From IMG/VR virus record IMGVR_UViG_3300014885_000009, positions 1 to 30,113 of that record: DNA of 30,113 nucleotides; one strand, 5' to 3'. Of this stretch, positions 1,414 to 14,878 are shown in pieces. A model generated the notes under the pieces. The model saw only the letters and a list, made by a program, of their open reading frames with translations. It was not told the DNA's origin and did not search any database. Each line of letters begins with the position of its first letter. The first letter of the stretch is position 1. The translations under genes and the position numbers were made by a program. The DNA comes from a virus. Lineage: Duplodnaviria; Caudoviricetes.

Positions 1414-2295
1414 ATGTCAGACAATTTGAGGCACTGGATTTTCGAGAGGTACTTGCCGCAGAATCTAAAAGTCAGAAACGAAGCGACCCGCACCAACTAC
1501 CGCCACGCCGTCAACGACTTGGCGGAGCTGCTGGGGCGCGAACCGCTGCTATCCGATCTGACCGACGAGACCTTGACCTCGCTGATTCTGCATCTACTGG
1601 GTCCGCGTAAGCTGGCAGAGACGACGGCCAACGAGCGCGCCGGGCGAATCAAAGCCTTCTGGACGTGGGCGGCGAAGAAACGCCACGTCGATCAATGGCC
1701 CACGTTCTCATTCGTGGCTGAGCCCGAGAAGATTCCGCGGGCGTGGCGCGAAGCGGAGATGGTCAAGCTGTTCAACGCCTGCCGATCAGCGCGCGGCGAG
1801 ATTGACGGCATTCCGGCCTGGCGGTGGTGGTTCACGCTGCACGGTTGGCTGTGGTGTACGTCGGAGAGGATCGGCGCGACTCTGGCCCTGCGCGTTGAGC
1901 ATCTATCGCTCGATGAGGGCGTAGCCGTTGTGCCGGCCAGCATACGCAAGGGGAAGCGTAAGGCAGCGATCTATTCGCTCTGGCCGGACCTCGTGGAAAT
2001 GGTTCGGATGATTCTGCCTCCGCACGCGCCCGCCCGCGACTTGGTTTGGCCCTGGCCGCTGGACCCGACCTCGTTCTATAACCACTACTCTCGCTTGCTA
2101 ATGCGTGCTGGGCTGCCTCACGATCGAACGTGCAAGCCGCACCGGATGAGGGTTAGCCATGCAAGCTGGAAGCATTACGCTGGCTTGGACGCTACGGCGG
2201 CGCTGGGACATTCGAGCGAGGAGACCACGAGGCGGAGCTACCTGGACCCGACGATTTGCAAGCCCGATGAGAAGCAGCTATTCCGTCCGTGGTGA
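1414..2295 (+). CDS. Tyrosine recombinase / phage integrase
   Basis: The catalytic residues are present in order: R (TSERIG), K-rich loop (RKGKRK), HxxR (PHRMR), LGH, and Y (RRSYL). The N-terminus looks like a core-binding region (TRTNYRHAV). Confidence 0.9.
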   Translation: MSDNLRHWIFERYLPQNLKVRNEATRTNYRHAVNDLAELLGREPLLSDLTDETLTSLILHLLGPRKLAETTANERAGRIKAFWTWAAKKRHVDQWPTFSFVAEPEKIPRAWREAEMVKLFNACRSARGEIDGIPAWRWWFTLHGWLWCTSERIGATLALRVEHLSLDEGVAVVPASIRKGKRKAAIYSLWPDLVEMVRMILPPHAPARDLVWPWPLDPTSFYNHYSRLLMRAGLPHDRTCKPHRMRVSHASWKHYAGLDATAALGHSSEETTRRSYLDPTICKPDEKQLFRPW

Positions 2296-2644: not shown

Positions 2645-2675
2645 AAAAAAGCCCCCGCAGTTAGCGTGCGAGGGC
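2645..2675 (-). terminator. Rho-independent terminator (leftward transcripts)
   Basis: The minus strand reads GCCCU-CGCA-CGCUAAC-UGCG-GGGGC-UUUUUU, a 9-bp stem followed by a U-tract. Confidence 0.7.
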
Positions 2676-2783
2676 CAGAGTGTAGCTCAGCACCCCAAGC
2701 CTACCCCCGGCAACCGCCGCTGGCAAGGCGGACAACCACAACCAGTTGTCAGGCGCTAGACAACCGGGGGAGGGTGTCAGCAC

Positions 2784-2861
2784 AAAAACCGCCCCGCCGC
2801 CCGTTGCCTTGCGGCAGCCTGGTTAGTTAGGCCGGGCGCGGACGGCGGGGAGGGAGAAACG
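2784..2861 (-). ncRNA. Putative 3'-UTR small antisense RNA (three-way junction plus U-tract)
   Basis: Minus strand: single-stranded tail CGUUUCUCCCU; 12-bp stem CCCCGCCGUCCG/CGGGCGGCGGGG; hairpin GCCU-AACUAACC-AGGC; hairpin UGCC-GCAA-GGCA (GNRA tetraloop); then CGGUUUUU. The tail and loop are complementary to motifs in four upstream leaders. Confidence 0.6.
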
Positions 2862-3077
2862 CTAATCAGTGACGGTTGCCCGCCCTACTTTGTTTCCATT
2901 AATGTCGATCAGCGGCCAATCTTCGTCATCGACAATCAGGCCGCAGTTGCCAATCGTGTTTGCCAGCTTGTTCAGGATGCGCACCACCTCATCGACGCGC
3001 ACGTGATTGCACTCGTCGGGTTGGTCGTCGTCGTGGAATGCGGCATTGTCCATTTGGAGGGTTATGGTGAGTGTCAC
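2862..3077 (-). CDS. Hypothetical phage protein, 71 aa
   Basis: GTG start with a GGGAG RBS. The DNAAF...EVVRIL...DINGNKVG pattern resembles small phage early proteins I recall. Confidence 0.75.
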   Translation of the reverse strand: MTLTITLQMDNAAFHDDDQPDECNHVRVDEVVRILNKLANTIGNCGLIVDDEDWPLIDINGNKVGRATVTD

Positions 3078-3079
3078 GG

Positions 3080-3601
3080 CTAGTTGCTCCCTTCCGAAAA
3101 GTCGGGCGCGATGATCCCATAGCCGCCCATGTCGGAATGCAGCCGCAAATCGAGTCGCCGCATATCCTCATCATCGATCTTGAGCGCGTAGCCACGAGGA
3201 TCGCGGTTCAGCAAAACGCGGATAAGCGGCTTGGCCTGCCTGATCGTGCGGAAATCCACCACCATGCCAGTACCCTCGCACGATGGGCAGTTGTCGCGCT
3301 GCACGCCAGGACGGCACGAGCATTTAGCGCCAGTTTTCGGCTGATACTCGTGGCGGTTGCCCAGCAGCGCATTAACTTGCGACAGGATCGCGTCAGAAAC
3401 TTTATCCGCCTCATCGTAGCCGCCTGCAAACTCCGGCCCATTGCAGAGCCGCAGGCCCAGCGCTGCCCCTTTAGCCTCCAGCCGTCGCAGCCGCTTGCAT
3501 AGGCTCACTGGGTCGCGATCGGTGGCATTCGGGAAGATAGCCAGCAGTTGCCGGCCGTGCTTCTCAATCGCCTCATACATTCGTTCTTGTTTCGTGGTCA
3601 T
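3080..3601 (-). CDS. Hypothetical phage protein with a Cys-rich (CSC...CPSC) insert, 173 aa
   Basis: Start moved to ATG 3601, which has the RBS GGGAGAAAUGAA. The longer ORF runs through a structured intergenic RNA. Contains NRDPRGYALKI and DMGGYGIIAPDF. Confidence 0.75.
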   Translation of the reverse strand: MTTKQERMYEAIEKHGRQLLAIFPNATDRDPVSLCKRLRRLEAKGAALGLRLCNGPEFAGGYDEADKVSDAILSQVNALLGNRHEYQPKTGAKCSCRPGVQRDNCPSCEGTGMVVDFRTIRQAKPLIRVLLNRDPRGYALKIDDEDMRRLDLRLHSDMGGYGIIAPDFSEGSN

Positions 3602-3630
3602 TTCATTTCTCCCGTTAAAGGTTGCAAACA

Positions 3631-3650
3631 CCCCTGGAACTACCAGAGGG
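3631..3650 (-). promoter_or_regulatory. UAGUU-loop leader hairpin (copy 4)
   Basis: Minus strand CCC-U-CUGG-UAGUU-CCAG-GGG, about 30 nt upstream of ATG 3601. Confidence 0.6.
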
Positions 3651-3655
3651 ACAGC

Positions 3656-3700
3656 GCGCCGGCCACCGTCGAAAGTGGCACCCCGCCTATCGGGCGGCGC
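3656..3700 (-). ncRNA. tRNA-like three-way-junction element (not a tRNA gene)
   Basis: Minus strand GCGCCG / CCCG-AUAGG-CGGG / GU / GCCAC-UUUCGACG-GUGGC / CGGCGC. A 6-bp closing stem is directly adjacent to a 5-bp arm whose loop contains UUCGA. Confidence 0.4.
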
Positions 3701-3707
3701 TGGTGGG

Positions 3708-4253
3708 CTATTCGGCGGTAGCCGTCCTTTCAACTCGTGGCGTAACCTCGACGCTGTATTTATGGTTTCGCTTGCGTTTCTTCATGCGTCCCTCTAGAAA
3801 CGCCGTCTCTAGTTCGCGGCGCTGACGTGTGGCCTCAGCGCTGGCAATATCCTGAACAGCATCGCAAATGTAATGGCAGGCGTCCCATCGCTGTCCCTCG
3901 TCAGGAACGGCAGCGATTATCAGCGGCAGCGAAGTTTCGCACCGTTTTCGGTTGTCGTCGGTTACGATCCAGCCGACACCGCCGCCATGCCGCCAGCGAA
4001 TTGCGACATACGCGCCGCCAAGTTTACGTTCTTTAGTGAAAATGTCGTAGCGGTGGCTCGATCCGGTCCATTTTGTGTTACTGTTCGGAAAACCCCAACA
4101 GGGCCGTCCCTCGCCAAAGCAGCACCGCGCAACGTGCGTCCACTCTGCTGTGGTGACTTCGGTTTTTCCATAGACGCCAATCTGGCCGCCGTGGTTTTCG
4201 ACGTAGGCCGGTTCGCGTTCTTGCATGATCGGTAGTTGCGGTTCTTCTCGCAT
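3708..4253 (-). CDS. Hypothetical protein, 181 aa
   Basis: ATG with a GAGGAG RBS overlapping the end of the upstream gene. Confidence 0.75.
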   Translation of the reverse strand: MREEPQLPIMQEREPAYVENHGGQIGVYGKTEVTTAEWTHVARCCFGEGRPCWGFPNSNTKWTGSSHRYDIFTKERKLGGAYVAIRWRHGGGVGWIVTDDNRKRCETSLPLIIAAVPDEGQRWDACHYICDAVQDIASAEATRQRRELETAFLEGRMKKRKRNHKYSVEVTPRVERTATAE

Positions 4254-4259
4254 TGGTAT

Positions 4260-4475
4260 TTACTCCTCGCAAGCCCGCTCAGCGGCCTGCCTGGTTTTGT
4301 GACGACTCTTAATGTACTCACCAGCTCCCAGCTTGCGCACGGCAAGCCAGTAATGCCCCAACGAGGGGCTTTTGACTTCGACAACCGCCCAGTCACCGCA
4401 AGCGCTTTCATAGCGGCGCGTGGTGGCTAGTTCGGTACGTTTGACTTTGGCACGGCGCGGGAAGGTGGCAATCAT
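4260..4475 (-). CDS. Hypothetical protein, 71 aa
   Basis: ATGA overlap with the upstream gene and a GGAGG RBS. Confidence 0.7.
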   Translation of the reverse strand: MIATFPRRAKVKRTELATTRRYESACGDWAVVEVKSPSLGHYWLAVRKLGAGEYIKSRHKTRQAAERACEE

Positions 4476-4714
4476 TGCTGCACCTCCTCAATTGGCTGTG
4501 CAGTCCAGTAGGACGGCGCGAGTACCATTAGCCCTTCGTCAAAGCGTTCGACGGTGTAGCCTTCAGGGTCGGCGATATTCCAGCCGACTGAAATCAGGTC
4601 GTTTACGTTCTGATGGCTGGCACGCCCGGCATAATAGGCCGGAATGGCAACCAGCGAGCCGACGATAATTGCCGTAACGATCACGGCGCATTTCAGGTCG
4701 CGCGTTGTGGTCAT
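4472..4714 (-). CDS. Small membrane-anchored hypothetical protein, 80 aa
   Basis: N-terminal hydrophobic helix (AVIVTAIIVGSLVAIPAYY) and ATGA overlaps at both ends. Confidence 0.7.
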   Translation of the reverse strand: MTTTRDLKCAVIVTAIIVGSLVAIPAYYAGRASHQNVNDLISVGWNIADPEGYTVERFDEGLMVLAPSYWTAQPIEEVQQ

Positions 4715-5361
4715 TTGCCACCGCCTACCGCCAGCAATTCGCCAGCCTCAATCCGCCCCAGTATCTCCCGCATCGAATTCCTACAATCCTTTGCCAATCG
4801 CAGATAGCGTTCGGCAGGCTGACCGTCTAACCCCTCAGCCGCGGCAATCTCCCGCGCTCGCGCTGCAAATGCCTCAGCAAGCCCGCGATGCGCCATGGGT
4901 ATCTCTTCGCACCTGGACAACAGCGGGTGCGCGTCGAGCTGCTCATCGAACAATCCCGCCTTAGCTTCGGAAGTCGTGGTAAAAATGACCGTCAGCCACG
5001 GGGGTAGATTCTCAAGCAGCCCCAATAGCCGCGTGATCGTCGCCCCGCGCATGCTGTGTGCTTCGTTGATAATCCAGCAGACGCCACGGCCGAATGGTCG
5101 CATTTGCTTATCGTGGCCGATTTCCCGCAGAGTATCGGCGGTCACTTCAGACCCGTCAATTTCCGTCGTCCCGTGATCGTCCGCCACTTCTGCGGCAATT
5201 AGACGGGCGAGCGTAGTCTTTCCCGTGCCGGTCGGGCCAGCCATGAAATAGGCGCGCCCAGATAGACCGCGCTTTCGCAGCCGGTCTATGGTTTCGATTG
5301 CCTTTGCCTGCCCGACTACTTCGGACCATTGGCGCGGGCGGTATGCCTCACTTAGTCGCAT
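4711..5361 (-). CDS. Clamp-loader-clade AAA+ ATPase (DnaX/RFC-like, AAA+ module only)
   Basis: YRPRQWSEVVGQ (RFC box II), Walker A GPTGTGKTT, Walker B variant IINEAH, SRC arginine finger (LLSRC) and sensor-2-like NSMRE. Confidence 0.88.
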   Translation of the reverse strand: MRLSEAYRPRQWSEVVGQAKAIETIDRLRKRGLSGRAYFMAGPTGTGKTTLARLIAAEVADDHGTTEIDGSEVTADTLREIGHDKQMRPFGRGVCWIINEAHSMRGATITRLLGLLENLPPWLTVIFTTTSEAKAGLFDEQLDAHPLLSRCEEIPMAHRGLAEAFAARAREIAAAEGLDGQPAERYLRLAKDCRNSMREILGRIEAGELLAVGGGK

Positions 5362-5380
5362 TGTCGTTTCTCCTGTATTC

Positions 5381-5395
5381 GCGGTAACTAACCGC
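5381..5395 (-). promoter_or_regulatory. UAGUU-loop leader hairpin (copy 3)
   Basis: Minus strand GCGGU-UAGUU-ACCGC, about 20 nt upstream of ATG 5361. Confidence 0.65.
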
Positions 5396-5401
5396 TAGGT
5401 T

Positions 5402-5463
5402 TGCCCTGTCATCGTCAGTAGCGGGTGGGCATTCCGCTAGACCGGCGCGGGGCCGGTTTCGAC
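5402..5463 (-). ncRNA. Type II hammerhead ribozyme
   Basis: Minus strand GUC-GAAA-CCGGC(CCCGC)GCCGG-UC^-UAGCGG(AAUGCCCAC)CCGCUA-CUGACGA-U-GAC-A-GGGCA. The full core is present (CUGAnGA, GAAA, GUC triplet), with stems I-III and a loop-I UGCCC/3' GGGCA pseudoknot. Predicted cut between 5440 and 5439. Confidence 0.9.
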
Positions 5464-5781
5464 TTAGATCGGGTACATATCCCGCATATCGGCGCAGTGC
5501 CGGTAATGGTCGCCCGCGCCGACGTTGCCTTTGGCATACTCGGCATCCGCCAGCAGGTCGAATTGCTCGCGATTTTCAACGTGCTGCGAGCTAATCACGC
5601 GCTGCCTTGCGCCTTGCGTGATGGTCACCAGCACGCGCTGCCAGCATTCCGGCCGGTCGGGATGACGCGCCTTCAGATTGGCGAATATCTCCGGCAGCTT
5701 GTTGCTGCAATCGCGCTGGCATTCGGCCAACGTGTCGCCAGTCGCGAATGAGACATTTCCGTTGAGCCATGCGATAAACAT
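5464..5781 (-). CDS. Hypothetical protein, 105 aa
   Basis: ATG with an AGGGGAAAC RBS. The stop codon abuts the hammerhead. Confidence 0.75.
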   Translation of the reverse strand: MFIAWLNGNVSFATGDTLAECQRDCSNKLPEIFANLKARHPDRPECWQRVLVTITQGARQRVISSQHVENREQFDLLADAEYAKGNVGAGDHYRHCADMRDMYPI

Positions 5782-5795
5782 TGATCGTTTCCCCT

Positions 5796-5875
5796 ATGGT
5801 TGCTGGATTGTGACAGCGCTGGGAACTACCCAGCCCGCATTACCGCCCACGTGGGGCGTCGCTCTGCTAAGCCAA
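5796..5875 (-). ncRNA. Twister-like ribozyme (circularly permuted, P5-type), with UAGUU hairpin copy 2 as P3
   Basis: Minus strand A-GCA-GAGCG-A-CGCCC(CACGU)GGGCG-G-U^AA-UGC-GGG-CUGGG(UAGUU)CCCAG-C-GCUG(UCACAAUC)CAGC. P1, P2 (UGC/GCA), P3, P4 with an 8-nt loop, UAA and GAG are all placed as in twister. Deviations are an A.C mismatch in T1, a G.U pair in T2 and A.G at the end of P1. Confidence 0.55.
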
Positions 5876-6250
5876 TACTCTGCCGCGCGCCGATACCTTG
5901 AACCACCGGCCTGATTGCCATTCCAGCGGCAGTCGAGTCTTGGGCCGCGGGGCGTCGCGCTGCTCCGTCTGGATCGACTGAGTAGAGCCACCGTTGACTA
6001 GCGGCAGATAAGAACCACTGGCAAAGCGCTGATTGTCCTGTTTCGCGTAGTACTCGCCCGGTCTGCTCTGGGTGACAATCCAGCCGGATAGCTGCTCTGC
6101 TGTCTGCTCGTGATACTTAAGGAAGTCGAAGGTGCGGATTGTAGTCGGCCAATAGACTGCGGTGAGCATAGGCGCGTTGTAATCAGGAGACTCTGCGCGA
6201 ATGCAGAGCACACCGCCAACGTCTGCTAGTGAGTAGGTCGTATTTGTCAT
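5867..6250 (-). CDS. Hypothetical protein, 127 aa
   Basis: ATG with a GGAGA RBS, within the leftward operon. Confidence 0.75.
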   Translation of the reverse strand: MTNTTYSLADVGGVLCIRAESPDYNAPMLTAVYWPTTIRTFDFLKYHEQTAEQLSGWIVTQSRPGEYYAKQDNQRFASGSYLPLVNGGSTQSIQTEQRDAPRPKTRLPLEWQSGRWFKVSARGRVLA

Positions 6251-6295
6251 GGTTTAATTCTCCAATTTGGTGTTTGTGGGAAGGATGGCAGGGAT

Positions 6296-6805
6296 TTAGA
6301 CAATAGCCCAAATCTCTTTACACTCGCCATTCTCGCAAGCGTAGAGCGAGGCATTGCCATGATCGTTGACGTGGAGAACTTCGCCAGAATAATCCGCTGG
6401 GACTTCCGACAGATCATCCACGCGCAAACCGTCGAAGTCCTCTAGCGAATCGGACGACAGCCAAAAACCGTAATCGCTGCCATCCCCCTCATGCGCGCCG
6501 AAGTGAAAGTAGGGCAGCGCGAAAGTACCAAGTTCGTCAAACAAGTCCGATAGATCGGAGTCGCTGTCATCGTCAGCGCTGTAGTACCGATCATCGCCAG
6601 AATTCATGCGCTCTTCGATTTGGCCAAGCATCTTGTCCAGTCTGGCAAATTCCTTTGTCGCTTCTAGTTCGTTCGCAAAATGTTTCTGCCATTCCAGCGA
6701 GCGCTCTTCATTCAAGTCGCTCAAGAGATCAACGAAACACGGAATCAAGTCCTCATTCCGCATTGTGCCGTGAGATACACTTCCGATTAGTTTGTTCGCG
6801 TTCAT
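6296..6805 (-). CDS. Highly acidic hypothetical phage protein, 169 aa (first gene of the leftward operon)
   Basis: ATG with a GAGGGAG RBS. Contains SHGTMRNEDLI and FGAHEGDGSDYGFW. About 39 D/E versus about 11 K/R by hand count. Confidence 0.85.
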   Translation of the reverse strand: MNANKLIGSVSHGTMRNEDLIPCFVDLLSDLNEERSLEWQKHFANELEATKEFARLDKMLGQIEERMNSGDDRYYSADDDSDSDLSDLFDELGTFALPYFHFGAHEGDGSDYGFWLSSDSLEDFDGLRVDDLSEVPADYSGEVLHVNDHGNASLYACENGECKEIWAIV

Positions 6806-6831
6806 GCTGTTTCTCCCTCTTTGCGGTGTTT

Positions 6832-6850
6832 CCCAGGTAACTAGGCTGGG
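6832..6850 (-). promoter_or_regulatory. UAGUU-loop leader hairpin (copy 1)
   Basis: Minus strand CCCAG-CC-UAGUU-AC-CUGGG in the predicted 5' UTR of the operon. Confidence 0.5.
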
Positions 6851-6852
6851 CG

Positions 6853-6914
6853 TTGACTAAAGGCAGCCAACATGTGTAGAGTATGGTATCGGATACTAGT
6901 CGTCAATACCATAC
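6853..6914. promoter_or_regulatory. Overlapping divergent sigma70-type promoters with an inverted-repeat operator
   Basis: Leftward promoter: TTGACG (6906-6901)-N17-TACTCT (6883-6878). Rightward promoter: TTGACT (6853-6858)-N18-TAGAGT (6877-6882). A perfect 9-bp inverted repeat GTATGGTAT (6881-6889)/ATACCATAC (6906-6914) overlaps them. Confidence 0.65.
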
Positions 6915-6931: not shown

Positions 6932-7147
6932 ATGGCAGAAACAAGCGGCAAACTGGCGGCAAAGATCAAAGCAGCCGTTGAGAAGGACACTCGCTCTATC
7001 TACGCGCTGGCTCATGCCGCGGGCATCGGTCGCACCCAGCTTGGCATGTTCATGCGCGGCGAATCCGATATGACGCTCACCATTGCCGCTCGGCTGTGTG
7101 AGGTGCTGGGGCTGGAATTGACGGATAAGAAAATCCGAAAATCTTAA
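6932..7147 (+). CDS. XRE/Cro-family helix-turn-helix regulator, 71 aa
   Basis: SIYALAHAAGIGRTQLGMFMRGESDMTLTIAARLCEVLGL is an HTH_3-type pattern. The gene is divergent from the early operon. Confidence 0.85.
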   Translation: MAETSGKLAAKIKAAVEKDTRSIYALAHAAGIGRTQLGMFMRGESDMTLTIAARLCEVLGLELTDKKIRKS

Positions 7148-8983: not shown

Positions 8984-9213
8984 ACTTCCTCCACGCTGCC
9001 GGGAACGATGCGCCAGCCGTCAAACCATTTCTTATCGTAATAGACTTCGCGTTCTGGAATGGCGGTTCTGGAGCCAAGATATTCTGATGGTCGAATGCCA
9101 TTGTGAATGATTATGGTGAAATCGGACGGTATATCTGCGCAGGTGCATCTCATCACCAGCGGCCCTGCCACTCCAGCCGCTATCGTACCACCGATGAATT
9201 CACGACGGTTCAC
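8980..9213 (-). CDS. Small protein with a twin-arginine-like N-terminus
   Basis: MNRREFIGGTIAAGVAG. GTG start with a GGAGG RBS. Confidence 0.65.
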   Translation of the reverse strand: MNRREFIGGTIAAGVAGPLVMRCTCADIPSDFTIIIHNGIRPSEYLGSRTAIPEREVYYDKKWFDGWRIVPGSVEEV

Positions 9214-9423
9214 TTACGCACCTCCCAAGCTTACATCGCCGTAATAGTCCTCGATTTCCTTATTAGTTCGTTTGCTGTATTTCACTGCTGTCGCGTATAG
9301 GTCATTAACCAGCTCCGCCTCCTTCGTGGCCCTATCCGCAAGCACCATAACAACGAAAGCATCGACCAAGCAACTGAAAGCGTAGTTGATCGGCAAGTGA
9401 ATTTTATCGGACTTTCGGCTCAT
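9214..9423 (-). CDS. Hypothetical protein, 69 aa
   Basis: Coupled to both neighbours (ATGA overlap and abutting stop/start). Confidence 0.6.
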   Translation of the reverse strand: MSRKSDKIHLPINYAFSCLVDAFVVMVLADRATKEAELVNDLYATAVKYSKRTNKEIEDYYGDVSLGGA

Positions 9424-9608
9424 GGTTGCTCGCCTTCCTCCAACGGCGTTTCCTCAATCTGCCCGCCAAAGTACAGGATATGGCCTAGCATCTCCTGATG
9501 CAGCTCGAAGCTGCACTGGGGACAGAGAGCGGCTTCTGTCGGTTCGATGGTCAGGCTGAAGTAGCTGACGCGCACGGTGGCTGTGGATGGGCAGTTGGTG
9601 CAGGTCAT
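9420..9608 (-). CDS. Small Zn-finger-like protein (CTNC...CPQC)
   Basis: Start moved to ATG 9608, giving an ATGA overlap with 9605-9808. Confidence 0.6.
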   Translation of the reverse strand: MTCTNCPSTATVRVSYFSLTIEPTEAALCPQCSFELHQEMLGHILYFGGQIEETPLEEGEQP

Positions 9609-10346: not shown

Positions 10347-10891
10347 TTCTTTTTTAAACCTCTCTTGACCTTGCGTTTTATAGCTACCCTCTTCTTTCGA
10401 GTGCTAATAGCTCTATTTAATTTCGAGAATCTTAATTGGCAAATCGTCCGAACAAACGCAATCTCGCCCAAGAGTTTCTTGCAGTCAGCGGTATGGCTTG
10501 CTAAAGCCTCGTCGGTGCGTTTAATCCTGGCCAGCATTACATTTTCCAGCACACTCAGGTCTCGATACGAAGGCTTCTCCTCAAAGGATGAGACGGACGA
10601 GGAGAGCGATGAGATAGAGCGATTGATTTCCAGTAAGTCTTGAGAGAATCTGCGCACATCGGTAAGTTTTTTCAGGACGTTTTTTGTTTCTTCGATATTC
10701 GCTATAAGTCCCCCAATCGCCTGACGAGTCCACGTGTCGCAGCCGATTAGATTGCTGATTTCATGGGCGAGCTGAACCGCATCGCTTGTAACAGGCGGTG
10801 TGTATTGTGCTTTTGGCGTTGCGCAGTACAGGCACAGCCTTCGTTCTTGGCCGTGCACACACAATGGGATCTTCGCAGTGTCATAGATCAT
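10343..10891 (-). CDS. Hypothetical protein, 182 aa (N-terminal CxH...CxxC, helical body, basic tail)
   Basis: ATGA overlaps at both ends. Confidence 0.65.
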   Translation of the reverse strand: MIYDTAKIPLCVHGQERRLCLYCATPKAQYTPPVTSDAVQLAHEISNLIGCDTWTRQAIGGLIANIEETKNVLKKLTDVRRFSQDLLEINRSISSLSSSVSSFEEKPSYRDLSVLENVMLARIKRTDEALASHTADCKKLLGEIAFVRTICQLRFSKLNRAISTRKKRVAIKRKVKRGLKKK

Positions 10892-11088
10892 GCTACTGGC
10901 ACCTCAACCGGCACCTCCACGAAACTCACCGGCCTGAAAAACGCCGTAATCACCCGATCGTCTCGGTGAAACTCAAGCCAGCCGGTCTCGTCCTTCGAGA
11001 CGCAATCGGCTTCGACCGTCACGTGGGTTCCACCGGAACCAAGGACTTCGTACTTCCGAACGACCTTCGCGATTTTAGCCTTACTCAT
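10888..11088 (-). CDS. Hypothetical protein, 66 aa
   Basis: ATG with an AAGGA RBS, and an ATGA overlap downstream. Confidence 0.65.
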   Translation of the reverse strand: MSKAKIAKVVRKYEVLGSGGTHVTVEADCVSKDETGWLEFHRDDRVITAFFRPVSFVEVPVEVPVA

Positions 11089-11111
11089 TTTGGTTTCCTT
11101 TCAGAAATAGA

Positions 11112-11576
11112 TCACCCAGACAGTTCTCTCCAGTGCGGCACTGTGTATTCGCGATTTCTGGCGCTCTCGATGAACTTGCATCTTCGCACCTCACGCTCAA
11201 CCTCCCAGCCGAATCGTTTGGCCAGGAAATCCAATTCGTGTTGATCGTAGCGACCGTAAGCCAGCATCCTCGCGTCAAAGCTGAGCGTCATTCGGTAGGT
11301 GTCACCTTTTGTGCGGTCCCACTCTACCTGACTTCCTCGCTTGAGTATTGCGTCTATAGCTTGTCCCTGCTTCTCAAGTTCTTCGGCGTGTGCCTCCGAT
11401 TGGCGCTTTAGCCGTTGTTCCAAGTGCGCCTCTCGCTTTTTGTATTCCGCCTCTTGAATATCAAGCGACCTCTTTTGGCCCTCAATCAACTCGTCGCCCC
11501 ACTCCTTAACCGCATCTTCCATCGTGGACTTCCACACCAGCGGCCACCATTTGAGGAATCTGGCGATGATTGTCAT
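11112..11576 (-). CDS. Coiled-coil hypothetical protein
   Basis: Start moved to ATG 11576 (GGAGG RBS, ATGA overlap with the DUF1580-like gene). The central region is E/K/Q-rich. Confidence 0.7.
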   Translation of the reverse strand: MTIIARFLKWWPLVWKSTMEDAVKEWGDELIEGQKRSLDIQEAEYKKREAHLEQRLKRQSEAHAEELEKQGQAIDAILKRGSQVEWDRTKGDTYRMTLSFDARMLAYGRYDQHELDFLAKRFGWEVEREVRRCKFIESARNREYTVPHWRELSG

Positions 11577-11818
11577 GCTTCCTCCCCGCACCCGTTCAGG
11601 CGAGCGATGAAGCGGCCGTAAGCCTCCATCGTCGTGTGACGGCCACCAGTGAGGCGCACAGTTTCAAGTTTGACGCGCTTGCCACCTGGGCAGCCGCGAT
11701 CTGCGAGAAGGCCGCGTTTCCACCATTTGCGAACGGTGTCGTAGTCGCGCGGTTCTTGAAGGTGCCTACCGAAGACGCGCAGCAGAATGGGCTTTTCAAC
11801 CCGGAGATCAATGCTCAC
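11573..11818 (-). CDS. DUF1580-like small DNA-binding (excisionase-like HTH) protein
   Basis: TVRKWWKRG...RVKLETVRLTGGRHTTMEAYGRFI matches the pattern I recall for DUF1580 proteins of Planctomycetota. Confidence 0.75.
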   Translation of the reverse strand: MSIDLRVEKPILLRVFGRHLQEPRDYDTVRKWWKRGLLADRGCPGGKRVKLETVRLTGGRHTTMEAYGRFIARLNGCGEEA

Positions 11819-11937
11819 AGGGCAGAACTCAGAAGATTCCTAACGCCCTCTACCGCGATTAGCATCATGCCAATGCCAGATTCTACCAAACTTCCGTGTG
11901 CGACCGCAAGTATCTCCCACGCGATACGGAAGCTTTC

Positions 11938-12969
11938 ATGGCCGAAACCGCTACTCCTGTTGACCCGGCAGCCGCGCCGCCTCCACCGCCCGCAGCGCCC
12001 CAACTATCGCCGGGGCAAAAGCTCCTGCAAGCCGCTCCGCTGGAACAACAGCCGCCGGTTGAGACTCCGCCGCCCGCCGAACCGCCGGCGCTCTCGCCAC
12101 GCCTTGCCAAGCTGAAAGACGAATTCGGGTTCGAGAACGTAGCCGACGAAGACGAGGCGTTCGACCGGCTGGTGGACTACACGAAGAACCTGAAAAACGA
12201 GTTCAGCGCCCAGCTTCAATCGGCGATTGCGGAACTGAAGCAGACCCAGCCGACCACGGTTGCCCCGCCTGCGCCGACGCAAGACGCCAAAGGCAAATGG
12301 ACTTGGGCACCACCCGCAGTTGACCCCACGATCGTTTCGCAGTTCCGCACCGCCGATGGCTGGAAGCCGGAGACCCCAGCCGACATCAAAGCCGCCGCCG
12401 AAGCCCGTCAGGCGTATCTCGATAGCTTCGCCCGCAAGTTCGTGAACGATCCGGCCGGAACACTCAGGCCGCTCTTGGAGGACACGTTCGGAGAATTCTT
12501 CGACCAGCGGTTCGGTGACATCGCCTCGCAGCAGCAGCAGCAGTCGTATCAGCAGCAGGTGTTTTCCGAGAATCCCTGGCTCTGGGAAAAAGACCCGGTA
12601 TCCAACCAGCCGCAAATCGGCAGGCTCTCCGCCGAAGGCCAGTTGCTCAACCAGCACTTCGTCGAAGCCGAGCGGAGCGGCATGAGCTTCGATATGGCCT
12701 GGAAGTATGCCCATGCGATGCACACTGCGGCGAAGCTGGCCACTCAGAACAAAACCGACGCCTCCTCGCAGACGGCCGCCGAAGTCAACGCCCAGCAGAA
12801 GGCCGACCTGCTGCGCCGCGCCGGCAATCCAACGCCGAGTCGTGGCGCGAGTCTGCCAGCGCCAGCCGCCACGAACCAGACGCAAAACCGGCACTTGAGC
12901 TTTGGCGAACGCTTACGACAGAACGCCCAGCGTAACGGCGTGCCGCTTCACCCACTTGAATCAGCCTAG
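11938..12969 (+). CDS. Capsid scaffolding protein
   Basis: Pro/Ala/Gln-rich, helical and acidic, directly upstream of the major capsid gene. Start taken at ATG 11938 (MAETATP). Confidence 0.7.
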   Translation: MAETATPVDPAAAPPPPPAAPQLSPGQKLLQAAPLEQQPPVETPPPAEPPALSPRLAKLKDEFGFENVADEDEAFDRLVDYTKNLKNEFSAQLQSAIAELKQTQPTTVAPPAPTQDAKGKWTWAPPAVDPTIVSQFRTADGWKPETPADIKAAAEARQAYLDSFARKFVNDPAGTLRPLLEDTFGEFFDQRFGDIASQQQQQSYQQQVFSENPWLWEKDPVSNQPQIGRLSAEGQLLNQHFVEAERSGMSFDMAWKYAHAMHTAAKLATQNKTDASSQTAAEVNAQQKADLLRRAGNPTPSRGASLPAPAATNQTQNRHLSFGERLRQNAQRNGVPLHPLESA

Positions 12970-13012
12970 CCCGGCGCGCCAGCGCCGAATCAACAAGTAA
13001 GGAACCGAAACC

Positions 13013-14167
13013 ATGACCGGCGTGACCTACCAGGGCTACACCAATACCGATTGGGCGCGTACCGCCGCAACCACGCTTGCCGATCACATCCGCGACGAGG
13101 AGCAGGCGTGGATGAAGAACTACCAGCTCGGCGCGCTGCTCGAAGCCAACGGGCGCATTTCGTACAACCACGGCGGCCGGGGCATGACCTGGCCAGTTCG
13201 CTATCGCAAGCACGCGATGGAAGGCAACACCGGGGAAACGCCGCGCAACTTTGCCCGCAAGAATCTGTGGAAGGTCGCGGCGCTGCCCAACAAGCGCGGC
13301 TATCAGGCGACCGACAGCATCAGCAAGGGCGAAATGCTGGAGAACCGCGGGGAACCGGCCATCATCAAGCTCTTTGACGACTTCGTGGAGCGCATCAGCG
13401 AGTCCATGAAGCAGGGCGTCGGGCCGGAGTTCTACATCGACGGCAACGCCACCGGCAACGAGCAGTCATGGCACGGATTGGAATCGGCCTTCGGTGCCAC
13501 GCAAACCGTGACCGCCGGCACCGCCGGCGCAGTCGCCCGCACCGCGAACGCCGCGGACTTCGTGGGCTACCCCAACGATACCTACGCCGAACTATCGACG
13601 GTCCTCGGCAATGAAGGCGGCGAAGGCGATCCGGTCGCCACCTGGCCCAACGGAGTCAACGACCCAGAGTTCGATTTCTGGTCGCCGCTGCTGGTGAACT
13701 ACACCTGTAGCGGATTCAGCGGTGCCGCCGACACGTGGGCCGCGCAGGGCGATGAAGCGCTGCGGTTCGGCATCATCCACGGCCAGCGCAACAGCCTGCA
13801 AGACGGGCAGATGACCAACGTGCTGCTGGACCGCAACTTGTATTTCCAACTGCTTAATTTAATAGACAACAAAGAGCAGTTAAACGTGAACAGGGGAGAG
13901 GATTGGAGCCTCGTGCGCCTCGGCTTCAAGAACGTCGTCGGATTCGACGGCATCGAAGTTTCGTGGGAGACGGGCATTCCGGCGAACGTCGGATACGGCC
14001 TGAACTACAAGAACATCGAACTGCGGTGCATGGAAGACACGATCTTCAAGAGCGAAGGTCCGTTCTACGACGAGCACACGCAAAATTACAATGCGGTCGT
14101 GTACACGCTCTCGAATATGAAGCTCAATAGCCCCAGGAACTTCGTTAAATATCTGACGCTCGCATAG
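13013..14167 (+). CDS. Major capsid protein (HK97 fold, podovirus-type family)
   Basis: 384 aa with an AAGGA RBS. TTL...LLEANGRISYNHGGRGMTWPVRY and the C-terminal LNSPRNFVK resemble that capsid family. It follows the scaffold gene. Confidence 0.85.
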   Translation: MTGVTYQGYTNTDWARTAATTLADHIRDEEQAWMKNYQLGALLEANGRISYNHGGRGMTWPVRYRKHAMEGNTGETPRNFARKNLWKVAALPNKRGYQATDSISKGEMLENRGEPAIIKLFDDFVERISESMKQGVGPEFYIDGNATGNEQSWHGLESAFGATQTVTAGTAGAVARTANAADFVGYPNDTYAELSTVLGNEGGEGDPVATWPNGVNDPEFDFWSPLLVNYTCSGFSGAADTWAAQGDEALRFGIIHGQRNSLQDGQMTNVLLDRNLYFQLLNLIDNKEQLNVNRGEDWSLVRLGFKNVVGFDGIEVSWETGIPANVGYGLNYKNIELRCMEDTIFKSEGPFYDEHTQNYNAVVYTLSNMKLNSPRNFVKYLTLA

Positions 14168-14221
14168 GCGACTCAACTCACCAACTCACCTTCGGCACTT
14201 TGCGCCCAAGAGGATACTGAA

Positions 14222-14878
14222 ATGCAAATCAACGATCTCCCGTGCCCAATCGGCGAATCACTCGCCGGTAAGGACGCCGCCGGCACTCTGGTAAACACCG
14301 ACAAGTGCGGTCGGCCATATGTCATCCCGGCCAACCGGATGACGGCTCTGCTGCGAGGCAACAAGCAACGCTTCACCGGCAAGCCGTTGATTGGCGTGCT
14401 GATGCGGAACACGTCGGGCCTGACGATGCTCGGCAAGCGCTTGGTGCAGATTGTCCGGGCCGCCGGCTACACCATGACGCAGGAGTTCGACGGCTACTCG
14501 GCCACCTTGGCGAACAAGGGTGTCGGCTTGCTGGACCCGTACCTGCCCACGACTGGCGTGGTGGACGACGACATCGCTTGGGTGTTCTTCGGCGGCCCGC
14601 TGCCGTGCCTGCTGCCGCTGGTCGCATCGGACCATACGGCGGACATCGCGGTTGGCGACGGCCTCGTGGCAGCCACCGGCACGACCACGGGCGTCACGAC
14701 GAGCGGACGAATTACCCACGTTCGGTTCGTGAACTCGACGGCCGGCGGTACGCAAGCATCACTGAACGCCTACGACATGAGCGTGGGCTTGCTGGGCCGG
14801 GCGATGAGCGCGCGGACCTCGCAAGAGACGACTGCCGGGGCGGACCTGCTGGTAGATTTTTTCATTAAATATTGGTAG
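14222..14878 (+). CDS. Probable capsid decoration/cement protein
   Basis: 218 aa, G/A/T-rich, immediately after the capsid gene and before the terminator. Contains an IAVGDGLVA motif. Confidence 0.6.
   Translation: MQINDLPCPIGESLAGKDAAGTLVNTDKCGRPYVIPANRMTALLRGNKQRFTGKPLIGVLMRNTSGLTMLGKRLVQIVRAAGYTMTQEFDGYSATLANKGVGLLDPYLPTTGVVDDDIAWVFFGGPLPCLLPLVASDHTADIAVGDGLVAATGTTTGVTTSGRITHVRFVNSTAGGTQASLNAYDMSVGLLGRAMSARTSQETTAGADLLVDFFIKYW

Follow-up and report, generated by a model that had tools for sequence, protein, structure and literature searches.

Why would a phage operon end in an RNA that is the complement of its own leaders? The question is raised by a 30,113-nucleotide stretch (positions 1 to 30,113) of the virus record IMGVR_UViG_3300014885_000009, hereafter the window, whose leftward early operon comprises nine small genes flanked by a repressor and an integrase gene. 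In four of the nine leaders a hairpin with a UAGUU loop precedes the word GGRGAAA at the ribosome-binding site (RBS), and the RNA that follows the operon's last stop codon (2784..2861, - strand), which we call the tail, is the complement of both words. Judging from the sequence, the tail is probably an antisense RNA that pairs with the leaders of its own operon and blocks their RBSs, which would place the operon under delayed negative feedback. The initial annotation of this DNA had proposed a two-site antisense RNA resembling C4 RNA, acting as a delay timer or as a layer of RNA-based immunity. Our analysis supports two-site pairing with the operon's own leaders, and a timer fits the position of the element at the end of the operon. 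The immunity role was not supported, and two putative ribozymes beside the leaders had been overlooked.

A tail complementary to four leaders of its own operon

Leader 1 (6806..6871, - strand), which also contains a 5' hairpin, carries its UAGUU hairpin at 6832-6850 and its RBS word at 6809-6819, where the complement to the tail is perfect over 11 base pairs (bp). The RBS word of leader 2, GGGGAAACG (5786..5794, - strand), lies ahead of a gene of 105 amino acids (aa; 5464-5781) and pairs over 9 bp with one G.U. Leader 3 (5362..5395, - strand; hairpin 5381-5395), ahead of the AAA+ gene, forms 9 perfect bp at 5365-5373. Leader 4 (3602..3650, - strand; hairpin 3631-3650, RBS word 3604-3613), ahead of a 173-aa gene (3080-3601), forms 8 perfect bp at 3606-3613, or 10 bp allowing one G.U. 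The loop of the tail (2821-2829) matches leader 3 over 9 bp (5385-5393) and the loops of the other three leaders over 6, 5 and 5 bp. All of the pairings and shared words reported in the initial annotation were exact on recheck. Across 60 kb (both strands of the 30-kb window) GGRGAAA occurs 10 times, four of them in the target leaders and one as the reverse of the tail.

The tail itself consists of an anti-RBS arm (2850-2861) that begins two bases past the stop codon, a long GC-rich stem closed by the AACUA loop (2824-2828) and a U-run (2784-2788) that is predicted from the sequence to be a terminator. In the predicted fold the anti-RBS arm is mostly open and AACUAACC is placed in the apical loop; the fold has a z-score of -3.45 and was equalled in stability by 1 of 200 shuffled sequences. 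The two-site score of the tail was reached by none of 1,500 shuffles. The tail also scores highest in summed RBS runs (39, against a maximum of 35 over 14,795 other genome windows), a statistic that was picked after the case had been seen. A weaker result was obtained for the summed co-folding energy over the four targets, which 5 of 300 shuffles matched. When ranked by accessible hybrid energy amongst 49 leaders three of the targets take ranks 1-3 and the fourth takes rank 16. In co-folding with any of the four leaders of the window, and with the leader of a close relative described below, the arm sits on the RBS while neither loop is engaged, and the pairing covers the Shine-Dalgarno (SD) core itself. 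That both loops stay free in these models permits loop-loop kissing without demonstrating it. Also in co-folding, the 3' foot of the tail, GCGGU (2784-2791), pairs with ACCGC of leaders 1 and 3, a possible third contact. No RNA run was listed among the sequencing runs containing the stretch, and two DNA runs gave short fragments that showed no differences. A reading of the tail as an integron attC site was rejected by inspection, as the paired core sites of that motif are absent.

Predicted self-cleaving ribozymes beside the leaders

Two of the four leader hairpins are associated with elements that, from their sequences, are likely to be self-cleaving ribozymes. The first (5802..5868, - strand) matches the twister-P5 family (Rfam RF02684) at 35.0 bits (gathering threshold 37.6, E 7e-4) with an inserted hairpin. 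By inspection against the twister fold one pseudoknot helix has a mismatch, and from twister chemistry the cut is predicted at 5842/5841. The second (5400..5464, - strand) matches the type II hammerhead (Rfam RF02276) at 35.6 bits (gathering threshold 37, E 8e-4), with a predicted cut at 5440/5439. It has the hammerhead core words and one extra base that is also found in another phage; in an unrelated phage record the same core variant separates a stop codon from an RBS. The twister carries the UAGUU hairpin of leader 2 (5818-5834) as an inserted extra arm, and that of leader 3 lies directly behind the hammerhead. If the ribozymes are active, leaders 1 and 2 would be severed from the tail. Leader 1 stands at the predicted transcription start, two further leaders at ribozymes and leader 4 behind a three-way junction, which would put three or more of the four hairpins close to a predicted 5' end. 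The link with ribozymes is seen in three phages of the set.

Phage ribozymes have been proposed, without a defined role, to process polycistronic mRNA, and their cleavage leaves 5'-OH ends (PMC6765202). The 105-aa gene and its leader lie between the two predicted cuts (5440-5841, - strand) on what would be a 402-nucleotide (nt) piece, and a similar arrangement is present at 10670-11260 of a distant relative, L012. The ribozyme-cut ends of such pieces could be joined into a circle by RNA ligases. A 6-nt word at the foot of the leader 3 hairpin (5391-5397) repeats a strand of hammerhead stem I (5434-5439), so the hairpin and the hammerhead could compete for one partner.

A close relative with a compensatory change

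One phage, L005 (record G002), has terminase, portal and capsid proteins that are 96-99% identical to those of the window and an early operon that is mostly different, though it retains the AAA+ leader, the last gene and the tail. Its counterpart of leader 3 follows a twister-P1 ribozyme, at the place of the hammerhead in the window. The RBS and tail words are GGGGAAAC with GUUUCCCC in L005 and GGAGAAAC with GUUUCUCC in the window, which amounts to one compensatory change, and within the tail stem a C-G pair in the window is swapped for U-A in L005. The window carries both RBS variants and the U in its tail is able to pair with either. Co-folding shows each tail to prefer its own AAA leader (-13.1 versus -8.8 and -10.9 versus -8.4 kcal/mol). 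A U-run follows the tail on the - strand in both phages, and in L005, as in another relative, L060, the operon strand gives a better fold than the opposite strand.

A second pair is found in L005 (L005-B), where the first two leaders have other loop and RBS words and the complements of these follow the stop codon of the second gene. As good a score was obtained by 9 of 1,500 shuffles and by 61 of 29,161 genome windows. The arm of L005-B also pairs locally, beside the RBS of the next gene. In the region 6001-8636 of L005 the AAA+ gene is shortened to 84 aa with its leader kept, and the tail is followed by an insertion that comprises a tRNA gene and a Ro60/TROVE gene.

Distant relatives use other words in the same layout

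Loci linked by the AAA+ gene gave 108 entries, of which 96 remained once 12 duplicates were dropped and 73 once those without a testable window (23) were set aside; their AAA+ proteins are 39-51% identical. An automated two-word scan of 640 post-stop windows was passed by 7 of the 73 loci, the window included; shuffled windows led to an expectation of 0.95 loci (at most 3 in any of 20 rounds), and swapped leaders to about one window. Five of the passing loci (L012, L019, L056, L060 and L183) have a different repeated RBS word with a lone complement just past a stop codon. Covariation between the paired words, which the initial annotation had put forward as a check, takes the form of the one compensatory pair in L005 and of changed words in these five.

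In L012 AAACGGGAG is present in 9 copies. Its only complement occupies the loop of a hairpin past a stop codon, and an adjoining loop matches the leader hairpins; none of 1,500 shuffles scored as well as this two-site element. Two hammerheads above threshold lie between four of the targets and the element, which argues for action in trans. In L019 both complements are placed in two loops of a three-stem fold (14 of 1,500 shuffles), whereas L060 has the arm-plus-stem form of the window (6 of 1,500). The RBS word occurs in 5-8 copies in L056, L060 and L183 with one complement 5-38 nt past the stop; for L056 and L183 the copies number 6 and 8 and the single complement is 38 nt past it. A model of the tail independently finds the elements of L012 (E 0.019) and L060 (E 0.69).

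Weaker candidates were also seen. L043 is among the loci that passed, though with a word that is not unique, and the matches in L053 (11273) and L184 are single-target ones picked from 760 windows. The anti-RBS element of L184 (1740-1833) locks the RBS of the next gene, which encodes the AAA+ protein. At 2480-2550 of L170 a complement, again a weak candidate, lies within the loop of a hairpin of very high stability (z -7.0).

The stretch 9390-11320 of L012 holds two intact hammerhead-like units and at least one decayed one, and a HicB-family gene lies ahead of the anti element. The RBS word of L012 overlaps the GAAAC-stem sequence of the hammerhead, so an origin by duplication is possible. A further 10-nt word of L060, TAGGTCACTA, is repeated about ten times, variants included, in the operon spacers (10640-14660) and may be a protein site.

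Searches for same-word relatives and earlier descriptions

A search of IMG/VR with the tail pattern gave one match, L005, and the tail model run over 122 sources (1.4 Mb) found the window, L005, the weak match in L012 and nothing else. No further operon of this kind was found with the 173-aa gene, the integrase or the helix-turn-helix (HTH) protein as baits. Neither a UAGUU leader nor the tail was present in 45 metagenome AAA+ loci among the matches listed (46 of 64 parts), and 26 distinct loci of the 71-aa family, to which the last gene of the operon belongs, had no anti-RBS tail, L005 not being counted among them. This family matched none of 401 genomes. The INPHARED search returned only a hammerhead look-alike. 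The tail has no match in Rfam, which agrees with the suggestion of the initial annotation that it is not a described family. A literature search, mostly outside subscription journals, found no description of an anti-leader arrangement at an operon's end, and the portions available of PMC5737381 and PMC5415839 contain nothing on it, the motif tables of the former being covered through Rfam.

A model for delayed feedback and its alternatives

From the words, their complementarity, the predicted folds, the position at the operon's end and the other words in relatives, we infer transcription, cleavage, loop contact, masking of the RBS and shut-off as follows. Release of HTH repression would start a single transcript, and the leaders would be translated before the tail is made. 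The twister and the hammerhead would cut the message, after which leaders 1 and 2 would be reachable in trans only, and the other two leaders either in cis or in trans. The AACUA loop of the tail would then contact the UAGUU loop, with loop-loop kissing the presumed first step, and the free 5' arm would pair over the RBS. Translation of the marked genes would drop, leaving a pulse, and the word pair would act as a specificity code that differs among phages. No promoter-like site was found directly upstream of the tail by a consensus scan and inspection of the sequence, so the tail is expected only after the operon has been read, which favours delayed feedback over immunity of the C4 type.

A number of observations weigh against this model. 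The family sharing the window's words consists of two phages only, which are close relatives (TerL 96.5% identical). The tail region is 84% identical between them while the structural genes are about 92-94% identical, so the tail is not better conserved, and the intermolecular compensatory change is a single case; with the tail identity not above background, that change gives modest support. The loop pairing is just 5 bp for two of the four targets, leader 2 is bound at -5.2 kcal/mol, no better than non-targets, and the window tail binds a non-cognate leader of L005 at -10.5 kcal/mol. Both ribozymes of the window score slightly below the Rfam gathering threshold. Two single-target pairs are not significant alone, namely L005-A (130 of 1,500 shuffles) and L012-1, a second element of L012 that the tail model also finds (389 of 1,500). 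Three of the 9 word copies of L012 are downstream of its element, local stems partly sequester the anti-RBS sequence of L012-1, L056, L060 and L005-B, and the hairpin loop word of L060 has no clear complement. None of 32 loci from planctomycete genomes passed the two-word scan (291 windows), a one-word scan was barely enriched (2 versus 0.59 and 4 versus 3.2 loci), and L019, L056, L060 and L183 have no ribozyme at the Rfam threshold, which counts against generality. Lastly, each transcript yields one tail for four targets, and the tail would have to outlast them.

It is possible, though we put it forward tentatively, that these phages run an RNA-only pulse circuit, in which chosen early leaders bear a two-word stamp private to each phage, the ribozymes cut the message into pieces the size of a gene with the stamp close to the 5' end, and the last-made complementary RNA shuts the stamped pieces off; several independent codes could coexist in one operon.

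An unlikely alternative is that the pairing operates in cis only, with the 3' tail folding back on the leader of the same piece and inactivating or protecting it. A single piece behind the twister has tail A of L005 at one end and the sole target of that tail at the other, leader 10749 and element 11156 of L012 lie between two hammerheads, and far-downstream anti-SD pairing is known (PMC6733600). However, a single tail cannot hold four to eight leaders in cis, and active ribozymes would sever leaders 1 and 2 of the window and four leaders of L012 from their elements.

Lower still in our estimation is a lysogeny or superinfection-immunity RNA that, like C4, would be made in the prophage and silence incoming phages with the same words. 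The repressor and integrase of a temperate phage would suit such a role, the words vary among phages as immunity types do, and heteroimmunity between P1 and P7 is set by C4 (PMC12197685). Against it, the tail, with no promoter-like site directly upstream and an arm that starts two bases past the stop codon, would be made only while the repressed operon is on. The second promoter-like site, which is conserved, lies downstream of the tail, and no antirepressor was identified among the targets.

We consider it improbable that the leader words are repeats that bind a protein or make a strong RBS, like the start-associated repeats (SAS) of Cluster K mycobacteriophages, and that the tail is an inverted leader copy, used on the + strand or functionless. 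The window tail does fold equally well on the + strand (-44.3 versus -42.1), a GTG after the inverted word opens a 45-codon frame, the loop word of L060, with no clear complement, would fit, and the SAS repeats include single inverted copies (PMC3203893). Yet the tail retains only the two words and neither the stems nor the spacers, the GTG stands 12 nt from GGAG where genuine leaders have 7-9 nt, and the 45-codon frame is a shadow of the 71-aa gene. The - strand U-run in both phages, the better fold of the operon strand in L005 and L060 and the lone complement just past a stop codon in five relatives also count against this reading.

Least probable is a pairing with a positive or neutral effect on the leaders, stabilising the cut pieces, whose ribozyme-made ends are 5'-OH (PMC6765202), or unlocking a gene behind the element, as the locked RBS in L184 and the local pairing of L005-B beside the next RBS could suggest. 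In the window, however, the tail closes with a U-run that no gene follows, and the SD core is itself part of the paired stretch.

If delayed feedback of this kind is true, it would provide a compact and re-codable way for a phage to confine the activity of its early genes to a pulse with no need of a regulatory protein, and it would bear on the purpose of self-cleaving ribozymes between phage genes (PMC6765202) and on whether start-associated repeats bind phage RNA (PMC3203893). Were the wider pulse circuit also to hold, phage ribozyme clusters would have one purpose, and antisense partners would be predicted for start-associated repeats elsewhere. Up to nine natural word pairs are available from the seven loci for comparing cross-specificity.

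Comparison with known systems

In C4 the b' loop covers the RBS and a' upstream sets the specificity (PMC5320573, PMC12197685). Like C4 of P1 and P7, the tail is phage-encoded and would be part of a longer transcript, its sites vary among related phages (PMC5320573, PMC12197685), and there are two short ones, one matching the RBS and one matching upstream of it. Unlike C4, it gives no C4-type match in Rfam (window at E≤5, L005 at E≤1, L019 and L060 at E≤0.05). The C4 fold has three stems, whereas the window tail is a free 5' arm with one apical loop, and only L019 has a three-stem, two-loop form. The element is also at the 3' end of the operon and its targets, of which there are four or more, belong to that operon, and the targets of the window are hairpin loops next to predicted self-cleaving ribozymes. 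C4, which is matured by RNase P, targets an antirepressor operon and maintains lysogeny; no antirepressor family was identified among the window's targets, though three of the four have no known function. The best reading of the sequence is that the tail is a C4-like two-site antisense RNA, yet not a member of C4. Relative to such RNAs the operon-end position, the targets in the element's own operon, the turnover of code words and the link to ribozymes would set it apart.

For RNA I and RNA II of pAD1 par, loop-loop contact is proposed to come first and second-site pairing over a translation start to come next (PMC7472228), the order also proposed for the tail, and the loop of the window tail has the YUNR word CUAA; the par RNAs, however, are convergent across shared repeats and serve one toxin (PMC7472228), while the tail is on the same strand as its several targets. 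A par/Fst-like type I toxin-antitoxin system would have a convergent antisense promoter and a small hydrophobic toxin as target; the element is instead on the targets' strand, and the targets, of 105-216 aa, include no such toxin family. In the aapA type I toxin mRNA a far-downstream anti-SD masks the SD upon complete transcription, as proposed here, but aapA concerns one gene in cis only and is undone by 3' trimming (PMC6733600), whereas in the window several leaders are involved, some on pieces predicted to be separate.

The SAS repeats share with the leader words a place at the RBS of a subset of genes, an extent beyond 16S pairing and a frequent upstream inverted repeat; rare copies are on the opposite strand, and whether the partner is RNA or protein was left open (PMC3203893). 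The words and hosts differ, ESAS elements were judged not to be RNA hairpins, and the portion of that paper available proposes no antisense partner (PMC3203893). The window's word, GGRGAAA(C), does not conform to the 13-bp Cluster K consensus (PMC3203893). Clusters of phage hammerheads and twisters also have interchangeable ribozyme classes between small genes (PMC6765202), but in the window a recognition hairpin is in or behind the ribozyme and a matching RNA lies downstream.

Other features of the phage and its operon

The 30-kb virus record has integrase, HTH repressor, methylase and resolvase genes, and terminase-, portal- and capsid-like open reading frames (ORFs) were recognised by inspection. 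With its repressor and integrase genes the phage is by sequence a temperate one, and its host is likely to be a planctomycete, as suggested by the named homologs of the AAA+ gene and by matches in 11 of 401 genomes of that class.

The divergent HTH repressor gene (6935..7147, + strand; Pfam HTH_3 and PHROG repressor families) has a 77% identical copy in L005; the longest ORF begins at 6872 and we place the start at 6935. A promoter-like sequence, TTGACG-17-TACTCT, under a 9-bp inverted repeat that is the predicted operator, is found at 6878..6914 (- strand), though it is absent from the list of a consensus promoter scanner. Its counterpart in L005 is TTGACA-18-TACTAT with an altered inverted repeat. 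The operator-like repeats (window 6881-6914, L005 4683-4717) differ although the repressors are 77% identical.

Target 1 is the 169-aa gene (6296..6805, - strand; phrog_29605), which encodes a phage protein of unknown function whose look-alikes in the Atlas are all viral and all hypothetical, and target 3 is the AAA+ gene (4711-5361, - strand), which is clamp-loader-like. The fold predicts a three-way junction (3655..3705, - strand) ahead of leader 4 that belongs to no family, with no Rfam match at E≤5 and no tRNA found by ARAGORN. Its loops loosely resemble a tRNA elbow, and as a guess it could be a processing signal. The operon ends with the 71-aa gene (2862..3077, - strand; phrog_9027 family), and the tyrosine integrase gene (1414..2295, + strand; Pfam, PHROG) is convergent with it.

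Downstream of the tail a second promoter-like site, TTGCCA-17-TAGGCT, and a canonical terminator (2650-2676) occupy 2650..2726 (- strand). Both are kept in L005, where the corresponding region (9200-9460) has the promoter-like TTG..-17-TAGGCT, a 9-nt word in common with the window and a canonical terminator, and the sequence suggests that the region 2650-2726 may be a second small RNA. The shared 9-nt word matches, as a complement, part of the D-arm of the tRNA encoded by L005, which may be a coincidence.

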